From IMG/VR virus record IMGVR_UViG_3300031274_000003, positions 1-50,476 of that record: a DNA stretch of 50,476 nt; one strand, written 5' to 3'. Every line of letters starts with the position of its first letter. Within the stretch, counting starts at the first letter, position 1. Below are positions 2,629 to 42,246 of the stretch, one piece after another. Made by a program: the position numbers and the translations under genes. The stretch comes from a virus. Its lineage: Duplodnaviria; Caudoviricetes. The notes below the pieces were generated by a model that saw nothing but the letters and a program-made list of their open reading frames with translations, had not been told where the DNA came from and searched no databases.

Positions 2629-3042
2629 ATGGCAACACTATCGACTGACGCAAGAAACACTGCTTGTGACGCTGTTACGGCGCTGCTAAACGCCGGCGCC
2701 GGCGCGAACCCGCAGCTGATTATACGGACGGCAGCGCAAGCAACGCTATGCACTATAGATTTGGACAGCACAGACGCTGTCGGAGATGCTGTAGCGGGAG
2801 TTGCTACAGTGGCGGCACCGGACGGTGAAGCCAGTTGGGTCGGGTATCAAATCAACCCATCTGCCGATGGTGTGGCTGCCGACGCGGTAGTTGTTGATAA
2901 GGATGCGACCGTTGTCTATACGTTGACGGTAGGCATCACTGCGAGTGTGGATTTGCAGCTGGCTACGCTGACACTGCAAACCGCGGTTCCCATCACATTC
3001 AGCGCCGCGCCGACCATTACACAACTGGCCGCCCCTGCATGA
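2629..3042 (+). CDS. Small Ala/Thr-rich virion structural protein (probable fibre subunit)
   Basis: 137 aa, beta-rich composition, inside the neck module. Confidence 0.65.
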   Translation: MATLSTDARNTACDAVTALLNAGAGANPQLIIRTAAQATLCTIDLDSTDAVGDAVAGVATVAAPDGEASWVGYQINPSADGVAADAVVVDKDATVVYTLTVGITASVDLQLATLTLQTAVPITFSAAPTITQLAAPA

Positions 3043-3045
3043 TGA

Positions 3046-5586
3046 ATGGCGGATGTATTCGGCCACTTTGGCCTTGCCACAGGCAACAATGACGGAACCT
3101 CGTGGGAAGATGCTTATCAGACGCCTGCCGCGTTCACAGCAGGCCTGTCTGCGGATGATGTAGGCCTAGTTAAAAAAAATAAAGGCTACGACATGTCCGC
3201 AGTGTTTACGGTAGCCGTAAACTGCACAATACATTTTGGGTTTGCCTCCGCACTGACAGGCACAAGCTATGATATAGGCGCCAGGACGGATGTTACTAAA
3301 CTGAACGGAAATGCCGGGGCTTATAGGGCTTTAGACTTATCGGCAAATATAACCATAACCAGATTAGAAGTATATAATTATTCGTTTTCTACAGCGCCTA
3401 TAGGAAATTTCACATCCGGCGTTCTGGAATTTTCTGACTGCGTGTTTAGAAATTCTGTATCGACCGGATCGGACGATGTGTCTGGTATGAGAGTGGCTGA
3501 CCCAGCTGAGCTTACTTTAACCAACTGTCTGCTGCACGATTTAACTGGGGGTGCTTTTGGAGCGTTACGCATAGAATATGCGGCTGTAACTATCAGCGGC
3601 TGTTCTATTTACGATAATGAGGGCTCTTTCGGTGCCGGTCTTGCTATATACGCTAGCGGCAGTGAAACTATTACTATAGAAGACACGTTATTAGCTACCA
3701 ATGTAGGCGCTTTGGGGGGTGCGGTTTTTGATTTAGGATCGGACGGGCCCGTAATATTTAACCGGTGCAGGCTAATCAATAATACCGCGTCTTACGGGGC
3801 GGCTATTTATATAGATAGTGGCGGCGGCGCTATTACAATAAATAACTGCGTAATAGCAGACAATAACAGCAATTATTCGGGGGCGGTTCGCTTTGATTCA
3901 TCTTCTGGATATTTGAATATCACACAAAGCATTATCGCTAATAATGACAGCACAGATACGGTGTGCGGGGGCGTAGATACAAATCAGGACCCCTATATAG
4001 CAGATTGTATTTTATGGGGAAACACAGGAACGGCGGGTTCTGGGTCTCAATTGTTATCTGCCGACACTGCCGGCGTTGCGGAGTACTGCGATATAGAAGA
4101 TTTGGCTTCTACGGGCGTTTCCGGTATTGCCTCAGTAAGCAACTGTGTTGATGCGGACCCACTTTTTATAGGCACAGGAGATGATCCGTATAATTTCACA
4201 GGATCATCTCCTGCCTCAGTTACCGAAGGTGGATCTGTAAGCGTAACCGGCTATCAAGATTATGACATTTTAGACGCTGATCGGCCTGGTTCTGATCCTT
4301 CGATGGGCGCTTATCAAGTAGCGGCCGCGTCTACCAACCCGTGCTCAATATCAATAACAGTATCTGCACAGGAGTGGGATGCTTCTGGTAGCCAGGCGAA
4401 CGATGCGTCATTAGGTATCACAGTTGCTGCTCAGCGCTGGTTTGCTCAAGGGAGTCAAGAAAACGCAGCGGCTATAGCTATTGAAGTGGCTTCTCAAGAG
4501 TGGGCCGCCGCCGGCAGCCAAGCGAATGACGCCGCTATCGCTATAGAGATAGGCGCTCAGCAGTGGGAAGCTGTAGCGAATCAGGCAGGCACCAACGCAT
4601 GCACGATAAATATAGAAATACCGGCCCAAGAATGGACCACTGCCGGCAGCCAAGCGAATGACGCCAGTATAGCTATAGAAGTTGCTTCGGTTGAGGTATC
4701 GGCTGTAGGCGCTCAATATAACACAGCTTCTGTTGCGATAGAAGTTGCGCCGCAAGAGTGGAGCGCTGCCGGCAGCCAAGACAATCAAGCTATTTTAAGC
4801 ATAGAGGTGCCGGCTCAAGAGTGGTCGATGTACGGCAGCTCTCCCACCAATCCGTGCACTATAGCTGTACAGGTAGCGCCGCAGCTTTGGTCAGCTAGTG
4901 GCTCGCAGGCAAACAGCGCGGTTTTGAGTGCCGTTGTCGGGCCTCAAATCTGGACCGCTGCGGCCGGCGTTGTTTTACCGGAAGACGCTTTTAACCCGAC
5001 GCTAGACGTTAAAATGGACGCACTCCAACGTGCACTAGAGTGGGCTTTTGGCTGCCGTATCCGTTTCGGTAGAAGTCCAGAAGGTAACGAATATGAGCCT
5101 TACGGCAGCGTATGGGGCGATTTGGTTTTGATGTTTGCCGGCGACGCCGAAAATTGTGACGTAGAGATTAGAGATGTGGACATATCGGCCTACGATGGGG
5201 TGACGCCTCGTCAGGAAGTGGCGATAAGGCAAACTCAGTTGAGATTTCAGTTAACTCTGCGATCGCGTAGCCAAAAACCATCCAAGAGCGCGTGGGCTGC
5301 TGGTCTTACCGGCATGAGTCGCGTTAAACTGCCGTGGTTTATGGAAGAATTTTTGACTCCCTATAATTTGGCGATAGGTGAATTCAGGCAGTTGACAGAT
5401 AGCGGGTTCACTTACGATAACAGAGTCGAAGATATGGCAATATTTGAAATTTTAGTATACACTGTGATGGTAGAGTGTGACGAGGCAGCTCGGGGAACGT
5501 GGATTGAGCGAGTTGAAGTCACTTCTAATTTGGGTCTACCGTCTAGCCTAGAGTGGTCTGACGAGACCATTCCGGAAGAGGAGTAA
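3046..5586 (+). CDS. Fusion protein: right-handed beta-helix + ten 21-aa repeats + C-terminal neck/tail terminator-like domain
   Basis: GGA(I/V), NC.IA.N and CILWGN beta-helix motifs; QEW..GSQ.N repeats; C-terminal EDMAIFEI...GTWIERVEV directly upstream of the sheath gene. Confidence 0.75.
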   Translation: MADVFGHFGLATGNNDGTSWEDAYQTPAAFTAGLSADDVGLVKKNKGYDMSAVFTVAVNCTIHFGFASALTGTSYDIGARTDVTKLNGNAGAYRALDLSANITITRLEVYNYSFSTAPIGNFTSGVLEFSDCVFRNSVSTGSDDVSGMRVADPAELTLTNCLLHDLTGGAFGALRIEYAAVTISGCSIYDNEGSFGAGLAIYASGSETITIEDTLLATNVGALGGAVFDLGSDGPVIFNRCRLINNTASYGAAIYIDSGGGAITINNCVIADNNSNYSGAVRFDSSSGYLNITQSIIANNDSTDTVCGGVDTNQDPYIADCILWGNTGTAGSGSQLLSADTAGVAEYCDIEDLASTGVSGIASVSNCVDADPLFIGTGDDPYNFTGSSPASVTEGGSVSVTGYQDYDILDADRPGSDPSMGAYQVAAASTNPCSISITVSAQEWDASGSQANDASLGITVAAQRWFAQGSQENAAAIAIEVASQEWAAAGSQANDAAIAIEIGAQQWEAVANQAGTNACTINIEIPAQEWTTAGSQANDASIAIEVASVEVSAVGAQYNTASVAIEVAPQEWSAAGSQDNQAILSIEVPAQEWSMYGSSPTNPCTIAVQVAPQLWSASGSQANSAVLSAVVGPQIWTAAAGVVLPEDAFNPTLDVKMDALQRALEWAFGCRIRFGRSPEGNEYEPYGSVWGDLVLMFAGDAENCDVEIRDVDISAYDGVTPRQEVAIRQTQLRFQLTLRSRSQKPSKSAWAAGLTGMSRVKLPWFMEEFLTPYNLAIGEFRQLTDSGFTYDNRVEDMAIFEILVYTVMVECDEAARGTWIERVEVTSNLGLPSSLEWSDETIPEEE
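4345..4970 (+). repeat. About ten tandem coding repeats of about 63 bp (21 aa; SIAIEVAxQEWxAxGSQANxA)
   Basis: Visible in the translation; GGCAGCCAAG recurs in the DNA. Confidence 0.85.
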
Positions 5587-37194: not shown

Positions 37195-38061
37195 TTCGGC
37201 CTGTACAAATCTGATATTATTAATAATTTAATTTCTGGGCCTATTCAATACCCTGTAATCATTAGCTTTATTCGTCGATACATTTTTTACAGTATTTCTG
37301 CGTTTGCATGTGAGGTATATATTGCAATTTATACAACACTAACAACACGTGAATTTTCTAAATTATTTTAATTTTATGAATTAATGTATAAATATAAAAT
37401 TACTATCAACACACGCCACACTTGAATTTTTTAATTTTAATAATTTTATTGACACACATAAGGCTACAGATAGGTTGTAATCCGTTAAGCATATATGTAA
37501 AGCTAATAATTTCAACATATTGAATAGGCCCGTAATTAATTCGGTAACAATATCGGATTTATAACAAGGCGATTTAAATTATAAAAAATTATATCGGGCC
37601 GATAATATATCTAAAAAAATATTCAATAGGCCCGGCCGATTCGATATACATATTAAGTAGTTACGGTACGATTTTGTAAAAAACTTAATATGCCAATTAT
37701 GCAATACGGCCTTACTTAACTTAAACGATTTCGGTATATTAGGAACATTCGGGCCGAAAGGCCTATTGATTTATAATTCGTGTGAGAAAGTATCAAAAAT
37801 TTTATTAAGAGAGGTGTGCGCGCGAGGCGTAAAAAAACGCGCGTACGTAAGGGGGAGTATGAAATCAATAGGCCTTTCGGCCTTTTTCCGCGTAATGCAT
37901 CGATATTGTTAATAAAAAGTTGGGCCGAACCTCGAATTTTCAATAGGCCCAATAGGCCAAACGGTTGAAATCATTACTTTTGCGTTAATATAGAAGTTTT
38001 TACAGTTATTCTGTAAGTCGATTTAAGTTGACTTTTAGGCGGCAGGACTTATGCTGATTGC
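37195..38061. other. AT-rich non-coding region, putative replication origin
   Basis: About 870 bp directly after the primase; seven AATAGGCC copies in both orientations and two inverted repeats. Confidence 0.6.
38028..38055 (+). promoter_or_regulatory. Sigma70-like promoter (TTGACT-16-TATGCT), possibly leaderless
   Basis: -10 ends 6 nt before ATG 38062. Confidence 0.45.
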
Positions 38062-38565
38062 ATGAGAGTTTTGTCTATTCGAAATCCATACGCGTACCTT
38101 CTGGCTTTCGGCCTGAAGGACGTTGAAAACCGTACGTGGATCACAGACTATCGAGGAACTGTCCAAATCCATGCGTCAGGTGATTACACGTTCAGGTGGC
38201 CGGATGCGGATTGGTTGCCTGAGAGCGTCCGTGAGGTCATTCAGGATGCTATCGACAGGCGAGTGCCTTACGATGACCTTCACCGATACGCAAAAGGATA
38301 TGAGGATATGTGCCGTCACGCTGAGGCTGTGCTCGGTATTGAAGAAGGTGTAACGGACGATTTCATAGACACCTTAAAAAACGTCGATTTTAGTCCTTTT
38401 GTAACTAGTGCAATAATTGGACAGTTCGATCTAGTTGATATTGTTAAGAATTCTGACTCGCCGTGGGCTGAGAAAGGCTGCTATCACTGGATTACTGAGA
38501 GCAATATTGCCTATGAGCAACCGGAACTAGGCGTTAAAGGTAGGCTTCGATTGTGGAGCCGTTAG
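38062..38565 (+). CDS. ASCH domain protein
   Basis: LSIRNPYA.L...GLKDVENRTW.T.YRG.V.IHAS; KGRLRLW. Confidence 0.9.
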   Translation: MRVLSIRNPYAYLLAFGLKDVENRTWITDYRGTVQIHASGDYTFRWPDADWLPESVREVIQDAIDRRVPYDDLHRYAKGYEDMCRHAEAVLGIEEGVTDDFIDTLKNVDFSPFVTSAIIGQFDLVDIVKNSDSPWAEKGCYHWITESNIAYEQPELGVKGRLRLWSR

Positions 38566-38576
38566 AAGGAGTGGTT

Positions 38577-38894
38577 ATGAGAGTTTTGTTGTTTGTATTG
38601 GTTTTGTCGTTTGTCGGTTGTTCCGGCTCTGTTGGTCCTTTTGAGATATCGCCCGCCAAGGCGGCGCCTACGTGCGACGCGGTTAGAGCTCATCTTGTCG
38701 ACATCGGGTGTATGAAAGTGCCTATGTGCGCTACTGCCGTAAACGCTGCTGTAGAGCAGTACATAACGGCGCGAATGCCGAAAGATGTGGATTTCAGCGT
38801 GTACTGCGATATCGCGCTTGTGTCGGGACTTTTGCCGGTTGATTGCGTTATGGAGGCGCAGACACCCCAAGCCGTGCTTGATTGTGGAAAGTAG
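38577..38894 (+). CDS. Cys-rich lipoprotein
   Basis: Signal plus lipobox FVGC; six further Cys; RBS AAGGAG. Confidence 0.65.
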   Translation: MRVLLFVLVLSFVGCSGSVGPFEISPAKAAPTCDAVRAHLVDIGCMKVPMCATAVNAAVEQYITARMPKDVDFSVYCDIALVSGLLPVDCVMEAQTPQAVLDCGK

Positions 38895-38929
38895 GCGCGG
38901 TAGTATTTAGATAGAAAGGAGGTGATCAC

Positions 38930-39004
38930 ATGGGCACTCGAAGTTTGCGTGCAGGAATTGCGGCTAGTGGTCAGGGCGGCACCGGCCGCGCTATGCGAAA
39001 GTAG
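38930..39004 (+). CDS. 24-aa Arg/Gly-rich micro-peptide A (MGTRSLRAGIAASGQGGTGRAMRK)
   Basis: Ideal RBS AAAGGAGGTGAT; absent from ORF track. Confidence 0.7.
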   Translation: MGTRSLRAGIAASGQGGTGRAMRK

Positions 39005-39013
39005 AGGAGTGGT

Positions 39014-39100
39014 GTGAATTTATTTAGAAGATTAAGAGCTGGCATATCTAGACTTTTCGGCCGCGGAAATCGCGGCCGGTCCCGATCTACTCGAAAATAG
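39014..39100 (+). CDS. 28-aa Arg/Gly-rich micro-peptide B (MNLFRRLRAGISRLFGRGNRGRSRSTRK)
   Basis: GAGGAG RBS, GTG start; stop 1 nt before next ATG; shares LRAGI and terminal RK with peptide A. Confidence 0.65.
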   Translation: MNLFRRLRAGISRLFGRGNRGRSRSTRK

Positions 39101-39101
39101 C

Positions 39102-39779
39102 ATGTCTTTTTTCTCTCCCCAAATGGCCGCAGTGCTGAAGGAAAAGCCTGCGGCCATCCTTTTTTCAGGCGGCAAAGACAGCATCGCTATGTCAGATATG
39201 CTGAATGAGGAAGGCCTGCTGCCTAAACTGTTTGTGTATTTTTATTTTGTGCCGGGTTTATCGTTTGTGGAGTCTGTGCTCAGGCATTATGCTAGACTGT
39301 GGCGGGTAGGTATACTTCGCTACCCGTCAGACGAATCGCTTAGTTTAATGGCACAGATGAAGGGGGCGCGCAAAACCAAATACAATGAATCGGATGTGCT
39401 TAAGGCGCTCCGAGAAAGTTTGTCGCTTCGAAAGGAGTTGGCAGACATTTGGCTAGTTTCGGGAGCTAAGAAAAAAGACAGCTTAGCTAGGCGCGGGATG
39501 TTGTCCAAACTATCGAACGGAATAGATCCTAAGCGTAAGGTGATATACCCGCTTATTGATTGGTCGGATCGGCAAGTGATGGCTTATTGTAAGCAGCGTA
39601 AACTGAGACTGCCTATAACTTATAGCATGGGCCTAAAGAATTCTATGTGGGTGCCGGATATAGAAGGCCTTATCTGGATAAAAGCTAATTTCCCTAGAGA
39701 TTATGACCGTATAATTGCCGTGTTTCCTATTTTAAGCAGCATGGTGTTTAAGCATGAGAGGCAGTATGCCCGCAAATAA
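39102..39779 (+). CDS. PP-loop/PAPS-reductase-family protein
   Basis: FSGGKDS; G.KK.DS..RR; YPLIDWS...V..Y; lacks the CysH C-terminal ECG(L/I)H. Confidence 0.85.
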   Translation: MSFFSPQMAAVLKEKPAAILFSGGKDSIAMSDMLNEEGLLPKLFVYFYFVPGLSFVESVLRHYARLWRVGILRYPSDESLSLMAQMKGARKTKYNESDVLKALRESLSLRKELADIWLVSGAKKKDSLARRGMLSKLSNGIDPKRKVIYPLIDWSDRQVMAYCKQRKLRLPITYSMGLKNSMWVPDIEGLIWIKANFPRDYDRIIAVFPILSSMVFKHERQYARK

Positions 39780-40545
39780 ATATGAAGCGTTTGAGACGGC
39801 GATTATTCACAGGAGTCGTATAGCGACGGCCGATTACAACCCTAGGATTATATCTGAAGAAGCCAAGAAAAAGCTTAAACGTTTCATGAAATCCAAGCAG
39901 TTCGGTTTGTTGGCTCCGTTGGTATGGAACGTGTTAACAGGCACCTTGGTATCGGGCCATCAGCGTCTGGAGGTGCTTGACGCGCTACATGGGCATCTTG
40001 ATTATGAGCTGACTGTAGCCCAGGTAGAGCTGTCTGAAGAAGACGAGGTAAAGGCTAATGTTTTTCTGAACAATCCGTCAGCACAAGGCCAGTGGGATTA
40101 TGATGTCTTGACGCAGTTGGCGGATTTAGGCGATTTCGATTTCGATTTCGAGAAAGATTTTGGTTTTTCGTCGGACGAAATTGAGCTTATTTTCGGCCCG
40201 CCTGAGGAGGAGCTTGATCAGATAACGGCCGACGGAATGGCGCAGCTGCACGATATGATCCCCGATAAACCGCAACAGGTAGAAGTTGACGAGACTGTTG
40301 ACAGCTCTTTGTCTGAAGAGGAGGCCGAAAAGTTCAGGCAGCTTAAAAAGGAAGCGCGAGAGAAAGCAAAGCTTGACAATTTAAATGGGGATGGCTATAG
40401 ATTGAGTAAGGCTGATGTTACGGTCACGGTGGTCTTCAAAGACGCCGAGACGAAACGGGGCTTCATGCGGTTGATTTCAAGGCCTGAGACAGAACGGAAT
40501 ATAACAGCAGAGCATTTGTTCGAATGCATAGAGAACGGGTTTTAG
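39766..40545 (+). CDS. ParB/Srx N-terminal domain protein
   Basis: ADYNPR.I, FGLL.PLVWN..TG.LVSGHQRL, LNNP..QG.WD. Confidence 0.85.
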   Translation: MPANKYEAFETAIIHRSRIATADYNPRIISEEAKKKLKRFMKSKQFGLLAPLVWNVLTGTLVSGHQRLEVLDALHGHLDYELTVAQVELSEEDEVKANVFLNNPSAQGQWDYDVLTQLADLGDFDFDFEKDFGFSSDEIELIFGPPEEELDQITADGMAQLHDMIPDKPQQVEVDETVDSSLSEEEAEKFRQLKKEAREKAKLDNLNGDGYRLSKADVTVTVVFKDAETKRGFMRLISRPETERNITAEHLFECIENGF

Positions 40546-40884
40546 ATGGTTTCATATAAAGATGCGGAAATTTTAGGTATTCCAGTTGATGCGACGCGCG
40601 TAGTAAATTCTACTTCGTTATACGATGACGGGTCTGATGAAATGCCTAAAGTTGCTAATATAGGTAAATTGGAGAAGCTGCTGAGCGACGAAGGTTCTGA
40701 TCACTATAAACGTGGGTCAATACAGCCAGCGTTGTTTATACGAGCTAATGATATGCCGTTTTTTGAAGGGTCGGCTGTAAAGTATATTGCTAGACATAGG
40801 CACTCTAAAAACGGGAAGCGAGATCTCGAGAAAGCTATCCACTATTTGAAAATGATTATAGCGTGTGACTACTCGAGTGATTAG
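40546..40884 (+). CDS. DUF3310 (T7 gp1.7-like) domain protein
   Basis: GSDHY...IQP...F.EGSAVKYIARH..KNG..DLEKAIHYL. Confidence 0.8.
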   Translation: MVSYKDAEILGIPVDATRVVNSTSLYDDGSDEMPKVANIGKLEKLLSDEGSDHYKRGSIQPALFIRANDMPFFEGSAVKYIARHRHSKNGKRDLEKAIHYLKMIIACDYSSD

Positions 40885-41706: not shown

Positions 41707-41858
41707 TTTGGTTGGGTGTTGCTATGACGGTGTCCGGCGTTTATAAAGCGCTGACAGGCGGCGACGACAGTATGGACATAGATAAACTTCAGCAGCTTGT
41801 CGAAGGAATTACGGTTCTTGTGCTCCGAGTTGCTACTACAAAAGGCCTGACTAAATGA
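41673..41858 (+). CDS. Holin-like small membrane protein
   Basis: KKWYQSKLIW plus two hydrophobic segments, LR..T end; near amidase. Confidence 0.6.
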   Translation: MDNKKWYQSKLIWLGVAMTVSGVYKALTGGDDSMDIDKLQQLVEGITVLVLRVATTKGLTK

Positions 41859-42052
41859 AATTGTCGGACATACAAGCGGGAAAGCAGTATAGAGTTTGCT
41901 CAGATAGTGTGTGCGGTAATTTTATAATCGGCGATGTAGTTCAGAAGTATGTCGACGGCAGTTTACGTAACTACATGGTGGCGGATTTAGTGAGTTTGAC
42001 ACCTAAGGGCGAGTGGGAACATCTAGATTGTGAAGTGGAGCCGGTTGAATGA
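41855..42052 (+). CDS. Hypothetical protein, tandem paralogue 1
   Basis: 41/65 residues identical to next ORF (manual count). Confidence 0.75.
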   Translation: MKLSDIQAGKQYRVCSDSVCGNFIIGDVVQKYVDGSLRNYMVADLVSLTPKGEWEHLDCEVEPVE

Positions 42053-42246
42053 AGCTAGCTGATATACAAGAGGGCAAGAAGTACAGAGTATGCTGGGGCA
42101 GTGCTTGCGGCACTTTTGTGATAGGCGATGTAGTTCAGAAGTATGGCGATGGTTGTTTGGGTAATAGTATGATTGACGGTTTAGGCGGCTGGTTAGAAAA
42201 AGGCCAGTGGGAGAATATCGATTGTGAAGTGGAGCTGGTTGAATAG
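42049..42246 (+). CDS. Hypothetical protein, tandem paralogue 2
   Basis: Paralogue of 41855-42052; ATGA overlap. Confidence 0.75.
   Translation: MKLADIQEGKKYRVCWGSACGTFVIGDVVQKYGDGCLGNSMIDGLGGWLEKGQWENIDCEVELVE

Follow-up and report, generated by a model that had tools for sequence, protein, structure and literature searches.

Small basic proteins encoded next to a PP-loop enzyme and a ParB-like protein: a candidate three-part system of phages

Introduction

This report concerns a group of neighboring genes in the virus record IMGVR_UViG_3300031274_000003 (Duplodnaviria; Caudoviricetes), a complete record of 50,476 bases, the entire length of which is referred to here as the window. Between positions 38,930 and 40,545, two micro-open reading frames (micro-ORFs), termed A and B, precede a gene for a PP-loop protein that resembles 3'-phosphoadenosine 5'-phosphosulfate (PAPS) reductases, which is followed by a gene for a ParB-like protein (Table 1). 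Based on gene content and conservation, small basic protein, PP-loop enzyme and ParB-like protein probably constitute an undescribed three-part phage system which acts on phage DNA.

The micro-ORFs A and B

The gap between the upstream lipoprotein-like gene and the 225-aa ORF of the PP-loop protein measures 207 nt and is filled by A and B. This arrangement had been proposed in an initial annotation of the window, and the ORF listing agrees with it in its coordinates. The same annotation described an ideal Shine-Dalgarno (SD) sequence in front of A, which is indeed AGGAGG with a 6/6 match, and the ending of both peptides in RK, which can be read from the translations; likewise, the stop codon of B (TAG) ends 1 nt ahead of the ATG of the enzyme gene, which in turn overlaps the ParB-like gene. 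Both predicted peptides have an isoelectric point (pI) of 12. A carries a net charge of +5, a Gly-rich middle (SGQGGTG) and the C-terminus GRAMRK, and B a net charge of +10 and an Arg/Gly/Ser tail ending in RSTRK. Residues 2-15 of B follow a strongly amphipathic helix pattern, with a hydrophobic moment of 0.72 in the window and of 0.80 in the related contig L077 introduced below.

Short ORFs are frequent in the window (776 of 15-100 aa), so that a pair of them within 207 nt is no more than expected by chance alone; the signal of A and B therefore rests on conservation and not on the mere presence of ORFs. The only close relative with available DNA is L077, a viral contig of 51,307 bases with the same module layout, whose enzyme and ParB-like protein are 64% and 74% identical to those of the window. 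No close relative was matched by blastn against 50,697 phage records, nor was one with DNA returned by a single-protein scan of viral contigs. A back-translated pattern recovered the L077 contig alone among viral contigs, and its 21 matches among genome contigs included no relative by tblastn; a pattern for the conserved N-terminus of B also found only the L077 contig in the viral collection. In L077, the counterpart A' lies at 3834-3911 (MDRNRSLRAGLAAIGQGSSGRASRK) and ends in GRASRK, while B' lies at 3914-4000 (MNLFRRLRQGIARLFGRGRGQTARSTRK), starts with ATG, ends in RSTRK and directly precedes the enzyme ATG. The RK-stop is thus kept in both peptides of both phages.

Between A and A', 16 of the 23 aligned residues are identical although 27 of 69 nt differ, and between B and B' the corresponding values are 20 of 27 residues and 29 of 81 nt. 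Random placement of equal numbers of substitutions gave a mean identity of 8.0/23 for A and 10.6/27 for B, and the observed identity was reached in 0 of 20,000 simulations for each of the two. Taken together (NG86 method), A and B show 30 synonymous differences at 41 sites and 26 nonsynonymous differences at 109 sites, which amounts to proportions pS of 0.73 and pN of 0.24 and to a ratio of nonsynonymous to synonymous rates (dN/dS) of ~0.1 (Fisher P 4.6e-8), the synonymous sites being saturated; for A alone, pN is 0.27 and pS is 0.72. The differences fall on codon positions 1/2/3 as 9/4/14 in A and 11/4/15 in B. Of the six frames, the named one gives the best amino-acid identity (17/24 for A and 21/29 for B); two other frames are stop-free in both phages as well, but are far less conserved. 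Upstream of A, the spacer cannot be aligned with L077 except for the ribosome-binding site GAAAGGAGG, and no Rfam family matched inside 38930-39100 at E up to 1.

Selection analysis and translation signals, within one pairwise comparison, thus indicate that A and B are real protein-coding genes under purifying selection. The window thereby offers an example of functional genes of 24 and 28 codons which are recognizable by comparative data alone. Selection at the protein level had initially been suspected from the pentapeptide LRAGI. This pentapeptide is indeed common to A and B and is encoded by different codons (TTGCGTGCAGGAATT in A and TTAAGAGCTGGCATA in B), but it is not a fixed sequence and at most a putative recognition motif: L077 has LRAGL in A' and LRQGI in B', so that the motif is LR[AQ]G[IL].

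With respect to translation, 34 starts were examined for SD matches. The start of A is one of only two with a 6/6 match and B scores 5/6, whereas the enzyme gene is tied for the lowest score (2/6). Because this SD is weak and the start lies 1 nt after the stop of B, translation of the enzyme would depend on ribosomes finishing B, and the enzyme gene is probably translationally coupled to B. The layout of stop, 1 nt and ATG is also found in the more distant locus L002. A and B share a reading frame, with TAG and three further codons between them, and TAG is the stop codon of all four micro-ORFs of the two phages; a read-through fusion of A and B is not conserved, as the ORFs of L077 lie in different frames. 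The sequencing runs listed for the phage comprise seven of DNA and none of RNA. Four of the DNA runs were searched, one of which is identical to the window over 38787-39400, while three are without cover, so that no population variation emerged.

Table 1. Positions of the module genes, their translation signals and surrounding features in the window.
Feature	Position	Strand	Remarks
AT-rich stretch without long ORFs	37195-38061		870 nt
ASCH-like protein (phrog_3193)	38062-38565	+	
Lipoprotein-like gene	38553-38894		
Shine-Dalgarno sequence AGGAGG	38917-38922	+	7 nt 5' of the ATG of A
Micro-ORF A	38930-39004	+	ATG start, 24 aa, MGTRSLRAGIAASGQGGTGRAMRK
Shine-Dalgarno-like sequence GAGGAG	39004-39009	+	4 nt 5' of the GTG of B
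Micro-ORF B	39014-39100	+	GTG start, 28 aa, MNLFRRLRAGISRLFGRGNRGRSRSTRK
PP-loop protein, PAPS-reductase-like	39102-39779	+	225 aa, SGGKDS
ParB-like protein	39754-40545	+	263 aa; overlaps the end of the PP-loop gene
DUF3310 gene	40546-40884		
Tandem paralogue, first copy	41855-42052		65 aa, MKLSDIQAGKQYRVC...
Tandem paralogue, second copy	42049-42246		65 aa, MKLADIQEGKKYRVC...

The PP-loop enzyme and the ParB-like protein

The 225-aa protein matches the Pfam family PAPS_reduct (PF01507) with an E-value of 1.7e-7 and 31.9 bits (cut-off 22.5). Its SGGKDS motif comprises residues 22-27, and F21, S22, G24, K25 and D26 are invariant in 15 sequences. CysH, the assimilatory PAPS reductase, carries a catalytic C-terminal Cys motif of the ECGLH type. 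The initial annotation had noted its absence and considered sulfate assimilation unlikely, and the more specific comparisons lead to the same view: Cys is absent from the C-terminal 60 residues, no Cys is invariant in the alignment of 15 sequences, and the scores remain far under the cut-offs of the CysH models, with 23.7 bits against 165.1 for TIGR00434 (cysH) and 17.7 bits against 254.2 for TIGR02057 (PAPS_reductase). An assimilatory CysH was therefore rejected as a candidate. The same applies to a DNA phosphorothioation enzyme, as there is no invariant Cys and PADLOC reported no match to DndC, SspD or BrxP, but only a local match to QueC. The nearest solved sequences range from E 9e-5 to 6e-3 and include the PP-loop domain of GMP synthetase (E 9e-5), Cap9 (E 7e-4) and PAPS reductases. 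Since the PP-loop is present and the CysH and Dnd tests are missed, the protein is best described as a predicted Cys-less adenylating PP-loop enzyme. It is basic (net charge +16), and its N-terminus is conserved in the relatives P0003-P0005; the enzymes P0005-P0011 share 45-60% identity with it. No fused forms were found among longer proteins, which is weak evidence. At 39402-39422 (residues about 107-113), the window enzyme has a 6-residue insertion in SLRKELADI which does not occur in the 88-96% identical proteins P0002 and P0003.

The 263-aa protein matches phrog_9353 (E 7.8e-53) and phrog_620, annotated as 'ParB-like partition protein' (E 5e-22), and its start is likely the ATG at 39766 (MPANKYE), as in L077. 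G68, H69, Q70 and R71 of its GHQR motif are invariant in 20 sequences. Profile searches matched the N-domains of Spo0J/ParB proteins (E 2e-4 and 3e-4), whereas a search up to E 5 gave no match to Pfam ParBc itself; the N-domain is of the kind that is fused to phage DNA methyltransferases. Besides this domain, searches of Pfam, NCBIfam and PDB reported no helix-turn-helix or other DNA-binding domain, and the Pfam searches reported no peptide-recognition domain in either the PP-loop or the ParB-like protein. The ParB-like protein of the window is acidic (pI 4.7, net charge -21), as is its family (median pI 4.9, net charge -12), in which an acidic stretch, GFS..DVD.MFDGDE, is conserved. It is 32-43% identical to the corresponding proteins of the cultured phages RAP44, BS-TP2 and LR1.

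A small basic ORF accompanies the enzyme pair in distant phages

More distant PAPS-like genes were collected from 59 viral and 16 metagenomic loci, the latter by a pattern scan, and three cultured phages were added. A ParB-like gene lies downstream of the PAPS-like gene in 31 of the 79 loci. A small basic ORF precedes the enzyme gene in 28 of these 31 loci; it is strongly basic (net +5 to +19), encoded on the same strand, 23-86 aa long and ends at most 150 nt upstream of the enzyme gene. The loci L011 and L016 are ambiguous in this respect. A strict G-tail rule, by which four or more of the last 6 residues are Gly and K+R makes up 15% or more, was applied to both strands of the whole loci and returned 17 ORFs; 16 of these immediately precede the enzyme gene in loci that have a ParB-like gene, and one lies elsewhere. 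Such an ORF thus lies directly upstream in 16/31 loci with the pair, compared with 0/48 PAPS-like loci without a ParB-like gene. A rule of net charge alone separates the two groups less well, as several loci without a ParB-like gene have basic short ORFs near the enzyme start.

The reverse test, which is the stronger one, started from the small protein. Viral contigs were scanned for a DNA pattern encoding RRKSxGGxGG followed by TAA or TAG, which yielded 35 loci; five of their contigs are shared with the first set. A PAPS-like gene is present on the same strand in 33 of the 35 and a ParB-like gene in addition in 30, and the estimated enzyme start lies -6 to +13 nt from the stop of the small ORF in 31 of the 33. 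The two remaining loci lack a PAPS-like gene: the contig of one ends at the motif, and the other is a chance match. Gene context in both directions (28/31 and 33/35) therefore speaks for the functional link between peptides and enzyme pair that had been supposed for the window, and the small basic ORF is, by this linkage, tied to the enzyme pair across deep divergence.

In the cultured phages, the gene order is ASCH-like protein, small ORF, enzyme, ParB-like protein, small terminase, large terminase and portal. RAP44 carries no annotation for the small ORF, and BS-TP2 lists it as a 'hypothetical protein'. In locus L013, a second small basic ORF (2666-2809, 47 aa, MPLKKGKSKKVISKNIAAEIRAGRPQKQAVAIA…) lies directly before the diglycine-tailed ORF, so that two small basic cistrons are not unique to the window. 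The closely related loci L005 and L015 have Cys/His-rich HNH-like genes between the PP-loop and ParB-like genes (4084-4569 and 3732-4199, respectively); they were read as insertions of mobile endonucleases and rejected as module components.

The diglycine-tailed family and its relation to A and B

Most of the small upstream proteins belong to one family with the consensus MAT..[IV]Q.RI...TGV.R ... RRKSxGGxGG-stop, so that distant relatives of the module hold a defined family of 40-90 aa proteins at the position of the small ORF. Ten members searched against Pfam and PHROG gave no match better than E 0.07, and the database relatives of the family, 17 matches at E up to 1e-3 and 29 cluster representatives, are unnamed. 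The protein ends in GG in 53 of 58 distinct members, a count which is partly circular because the profile used for collecting them includes the tail.

A and B occupy the position that characterizes this family, being encoded on the same strand with the stop of B 1 nt from the PP-loop gene and the ParB-like gene thereafter. They are devoid of its C-terminal RRKSxGGxGG-stop and end in GRAMRK and RSTRK instead. A hidden Markov model (HMM) built from 17 sequences ranked B second among about 790 short ORFs, at E 1.6, and an HMM of 58 sequences scored B at E 36 and A' of L077 at E 40. The motif R[RSQ][ILV]x1-3[AT]G[IV], which occurs in A, B and two other places of the six-frame window, was dismissed as a sign of homology, as it was chosen after the fact and is present in only 13 of the 58 family members. 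A and B are thus, by gene position, analogues of the diglycine family which end in RK.

In the enzyme tree, the window groups with L077 and P0005 at 100% support, and this clade is nested in a clade of nine rows. The earliest branch of the latter is L002, with a 28-aa ORF ending in RGGGVSG. Gly-tailed small ORFs occur on both sides of the midpoint root as well as, in L002, within the clade of the window. The simplest reading of this distribution is that the ancestral module had a small basic Gly-tailed partner, the lineage of the window being derived, with two shorter RK-ended peptides.

Genomic setting

The window encodes its own DNA polymerase, helicase, exonucleases and resolvase, in addition to a primase-like protein of 808 aa, an Amidase_3 endolysin and a large terminase. 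The module heads the late/packaging gene block, and its operon runs on into the Amidase_3 endolysin and terminase genes. The DUF3310 gene directly downstream was rejected as a part of the module, as it has no relative in any other locus. Further downstream, two tandem overlapping paralogues of 65 aa sit between a holin-like ORF of 61 aa and the terminase region. On the other side, between the primase-like and ASCH-like genes, the AT-rich stretch carries a 24-nt hairpin-plus-tail, GGGCCGAAAGGCCT ATTGATTT, twice, with one copy on each strand (37751-37764 and 37883-37870), and may have a regulatory function or serve as an origin. Scans of 37-41 kb with Rfam and for promoters and terminators found nothing exceeding chance.

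The ASCH-like protein matches phrog_3193 at E 3e-24 and ASC-1 ASCH domains at E 6e-4 over residues 4-39 only, while the Pfam ASCH match (E 0.085) is under the cut-off. ASCH/PUA-like domains bind or hydrolyze modified bases such as N4-acylcytosine. Relatives of the protein are present in 18 of the 31 module loci (including L002, L077, L078 and L080) and in 8 of the 35 tail-pattern loci; they often follow the ParB-like gene immediately, in convergent orientation, and the neighbor in Bacteroides phage BS-TP2 is annotated as an ASCH domain protein; the gene is thus a frequent, not a constant neighbor. The lipoprotein-like protein directly before A (113 aa, signal …LSFVGCSG) has a counterpart of 54% identity in L077 (3446-3775), is absent from the other module loci and had no match in Pfam, PHROG or NCBIfam. 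Between its ASCH-like and lipoprotein-like genes, L077 has an additional ORF of 201 aa (2831-3436). In its last ~20 residues, this ORF duplicates the C-terminal end of the ASCH-like protein (…NPVAYDEPEIGVKGKLRLWNR), resembling what a gene insertion with target duplication would leave.

Proposed mechanism and alternative explanations

The conserved module would comprise one or more small basic proteins, a Cys-less PP-loop enzyme and an acidic ParB-like protein, the products of which would act jointly on phage DNA. The ParB-like protein would be the activator that engages DNA, a role shown for the ParB-dependent thymine dioxygenases of phages. The PP-loop enzyme would spend ATP on the adenylation of a carboxylate or carbonyl; the C-terminus of the small protein (GG in most relatives, RK in the window) would thereby become an acyl-adenylate and would then be passed to an amine acceptor on DNA or protein. 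In the clade of the window, two shorter peptides ending in RK would have taken the place of one diglycine-tailed protein. We propose tentatively and, by analogy with known modifiers, at a little short of an even chance that the small protein serves as co-substrate of the enzyme, its C-terminus being activated and transferred. This role is suggested because the family ORF ends exactly after GG and because the RK-stop is likewise conserved in the clade of the window. An exact GG end is a hallmark of C-terminal carboxylate chemistry, as in ubiquitin-like proteins, ThiS/MoaD, Pup and microcin C. A DNA 'peptidylation' can also be conceived, in which a disordered basic peptide of ribosomal origin, with a diglycine tail in most lineages and duplicated with RK ends in the window, would be adenylated at its C-terminus by the PP-loop enzyme and, under guidance of the ParB-like clamp, joined covalently to phage DNA, such as to the exocyclic amine of a base; the modification would protect or mark the genome before packaging, and the ASCH-like protein would read or reverse the mark. 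We regard this as unlikely.

Several observations weigh against the co-substrate proposal. A and B have no C-terminal Gly and no detectable homology to the diglycine family, and small proteins of other clades end in NGAI, GGRVV, NGSNG or ADHK. As the ends vary among clades, a mechanism which requires a free Gly carboxylate is not universal unless the ends are trimmed. To this are added the circularity in the count of GG ends, the many near-duplicates among the 35 tail-pattern loci (about 18 peptide types by eye), the conservation of A and B being drawn from a single pair of orthologues, and Lactobacillus phage LR1, which has the enzyme pair without such an ORF. Furthermore, judging by charge, the peptides would bind to the acidic ParB-like protein (-21) or to DNA rather than to the basic enzyme (+16), and this pattern suits an adaptor at least as well as a substrate. 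As adaptors, the small proteins would remain unmodified and would provide the ParB-like protein with a DNA-binding surface or neutralize its acidic linker, so that the ParB-like/PP-loop pair is loaded onto phage DNA. The contrast between an acidic ParB-like family and small proteins of pI about 12 and net charge +10 agrees with such a role, as does the lack of a detected DNA-binding domain besides the N-domain, and there is precedent for ParB-like activators of phages in which no DNA-binding domain is obvious (PMC13229309). The strict gene linkage fits adaptor and co-substrate equally well; an adaptor, however, leaves the exact GG end (53/58) and the conservation of the RK-stop unexplained, and we place this role on the unlikely side.

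The remaining explanations separate the peptides from the enzyme pair. Small proteins that are neighbors only through a shared late operon could act as packaged DNA-condensing peptides, as a cationic amphipathic lysis helper or as a decoy for host ubiquitin-like conjugation defenses. The cationic amphipathic helix of B (hydrophobic moment 0.72-0.80), the continuation of the operon into the Amidase_3 endolysin and terminase genes, and the lack of homology between A/B and the diglycine family would all be in line with such independent roles. In very different phages, however, the small ORF tracks the PP-loop/ParB-like pair and not the lysis or capsid genes, stop and start overlap or are a few nt apart in 31/33 loci, and no diglycine-tail ORF lies directly upstream of any of the 48 PAPS-like genes without a ParB-like neighbor, which makes independent roles quite unlikely. 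It is very unlikely that A and B are regulatory upstream ORFs, the translation of which delivers ribosomes to the SD-less enzyme gene or tunes it while the peptides themselves are dispensable. The gradation of SD sequences from A, the strongest, to the enzyme gene, the weakest (2/6), and the start 1 nt after the stop of B fit this idea, but coupling needs no particular peptide, and yet the amino acids are conserved at saturated synonymous sites and distant relatives retain a defined protein family of 40-90 aa at this position. Finally, the number of short ORFs in the window (776) and the failure of gene callers to predict either A or B could be taken to mean that both are chance ORFs in a non-coding spacer; given that both are kept in L077 in the best frame of six, with 0/20,000 simulations reaching their identity, a perfect SD before A and no match to an Rfam family, this is scarcely credible.

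Significance and comparison with known systems

The enzyme pair is already known and annotated, while the small partner is new in the libraries and papers searched. In the phages RAP44 (Riemerella), BS-TP2 (Bacteroides) and LR1 (Lactobacillus), genes of the same two families adjoin or overlap one another and lie a short way upstream of the terminase genes. Passages of two papers treat the enzyme as an auxiliary gene of sulfur metabolism and do not mention a small basic partner ORF (PMC10434257, PMC12323421). Judging by such passages, phage 'PAPS reductases' are routinely listed under this heading, and the enzyme described here misses every CysH-specific test; it is, moreover, firmly linked to two partners, a ParB-like protein and a small basic one, the latter mostly missed by annotation pipelines. 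Should the three proteins function jointly, a gene set that is widespread among phages, with about 60 contigs as well as cultured phages of Riemerella and Bacteroides, has been misread. The system would then carry out a peptide-dependent, ATP-driven reaction at the stage of DNA packaging, with a new type of small-protein partner for PP-loop chemistry and possibly a new DNA or protein modification in phage-host conflict.

Among systems that act on DNA, DndC, SspD and BrxP are PAPS-reductase-like PP-loop enzymes which occur with the ParB-superfamily protein DndB; the passages concerned describe an Fe-S cluster and a cysteine dyad in these enzymes and cysteine desulfurase, an ATPase and DndE/SspB as partners (PMC10853773, PMC12839542). 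The enzyme of the window differs in having no invariant Cys, and no such partner genes are among the ORFs examined. The phage 5mYOX thymine dioxygenases require a neighboring ParB-like activator, which has no obvious DNA-binding domain, and act on double-stranded DNA (PMC13229309). In that case, the enzyme is an Fe/2-oxoglutarate dioxygenase, in contrast to the PP-loop ATPase of the module, and a small basic third component is not described there. Loosely similar are bacterial operons in which a large YejK-like nucleoid protein is paired with a PAPS reductase and a ParBc protein (one preprint). The literature searched describes no small basic or diglycine-tailed protein with the enzyme pair, although supplementary gene-neighborhood tables may bear on this point.

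Adjacent genes for a PAPS-reductase-like and a ParB-like protein are the arrangement of the window as well as of the IbrA/IbrB type, named after the E. coli pair. IbrA has a specific C-terminal domain, DUF3440, whereas for the window enzyme Pfam reports PF01507 only. With regard to the small protein, modifiers with a C-terminal Gly work with adenylating enzymes, as exemplified by ubiquitin-like proteins and E1, ThiS/MoaD, TtuB with the PP-loop enzyme TtuA, and Pup with PafA. The module resembles them in that the small protein of most relatives ends in GG after basic residues and is encoded beside an ATP-dependent adenylating enzyme. It differs in that A and B end in RK, in that the small proteins are of low complexity and, at 24-90 aa, too short for a beta-grasp fold, and in that the enzyme is of the PP-loop and not of the E1-like or PafA-like kind.

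Cap9 of type IV CBASS (cyclic oligonucleotide-based antiphage signaling systems) is reportedly a QueC-like PP-loop enzyme in nucleobase-protein conjugation, and is said to work with a partner resembling tRNA-guanine transglycosylase on the CD-NTase (cGAS/DncV-like nucleotidyltransferase). In microcin C biosynthesis, the MccA peptide ends in Asn and the adenylating enzyme MccB is ThiF-like. Neither microcin C biosynthesis nor the conjugation by Cap9/Cap10 is known to involve a ParB-like protein or Arg/Gly-rich peptides. As in microcin C, however, the peptide gene of the module is very short and immediately precedes the gene of an adenylating enzyme whose target would be the C-terminus of the peptide; likewise, as in the biosynthesis of ribosomally synthesized and post-translationally modified peptides, a short precursor-like gene adjoins a putative tailoring enzyme.

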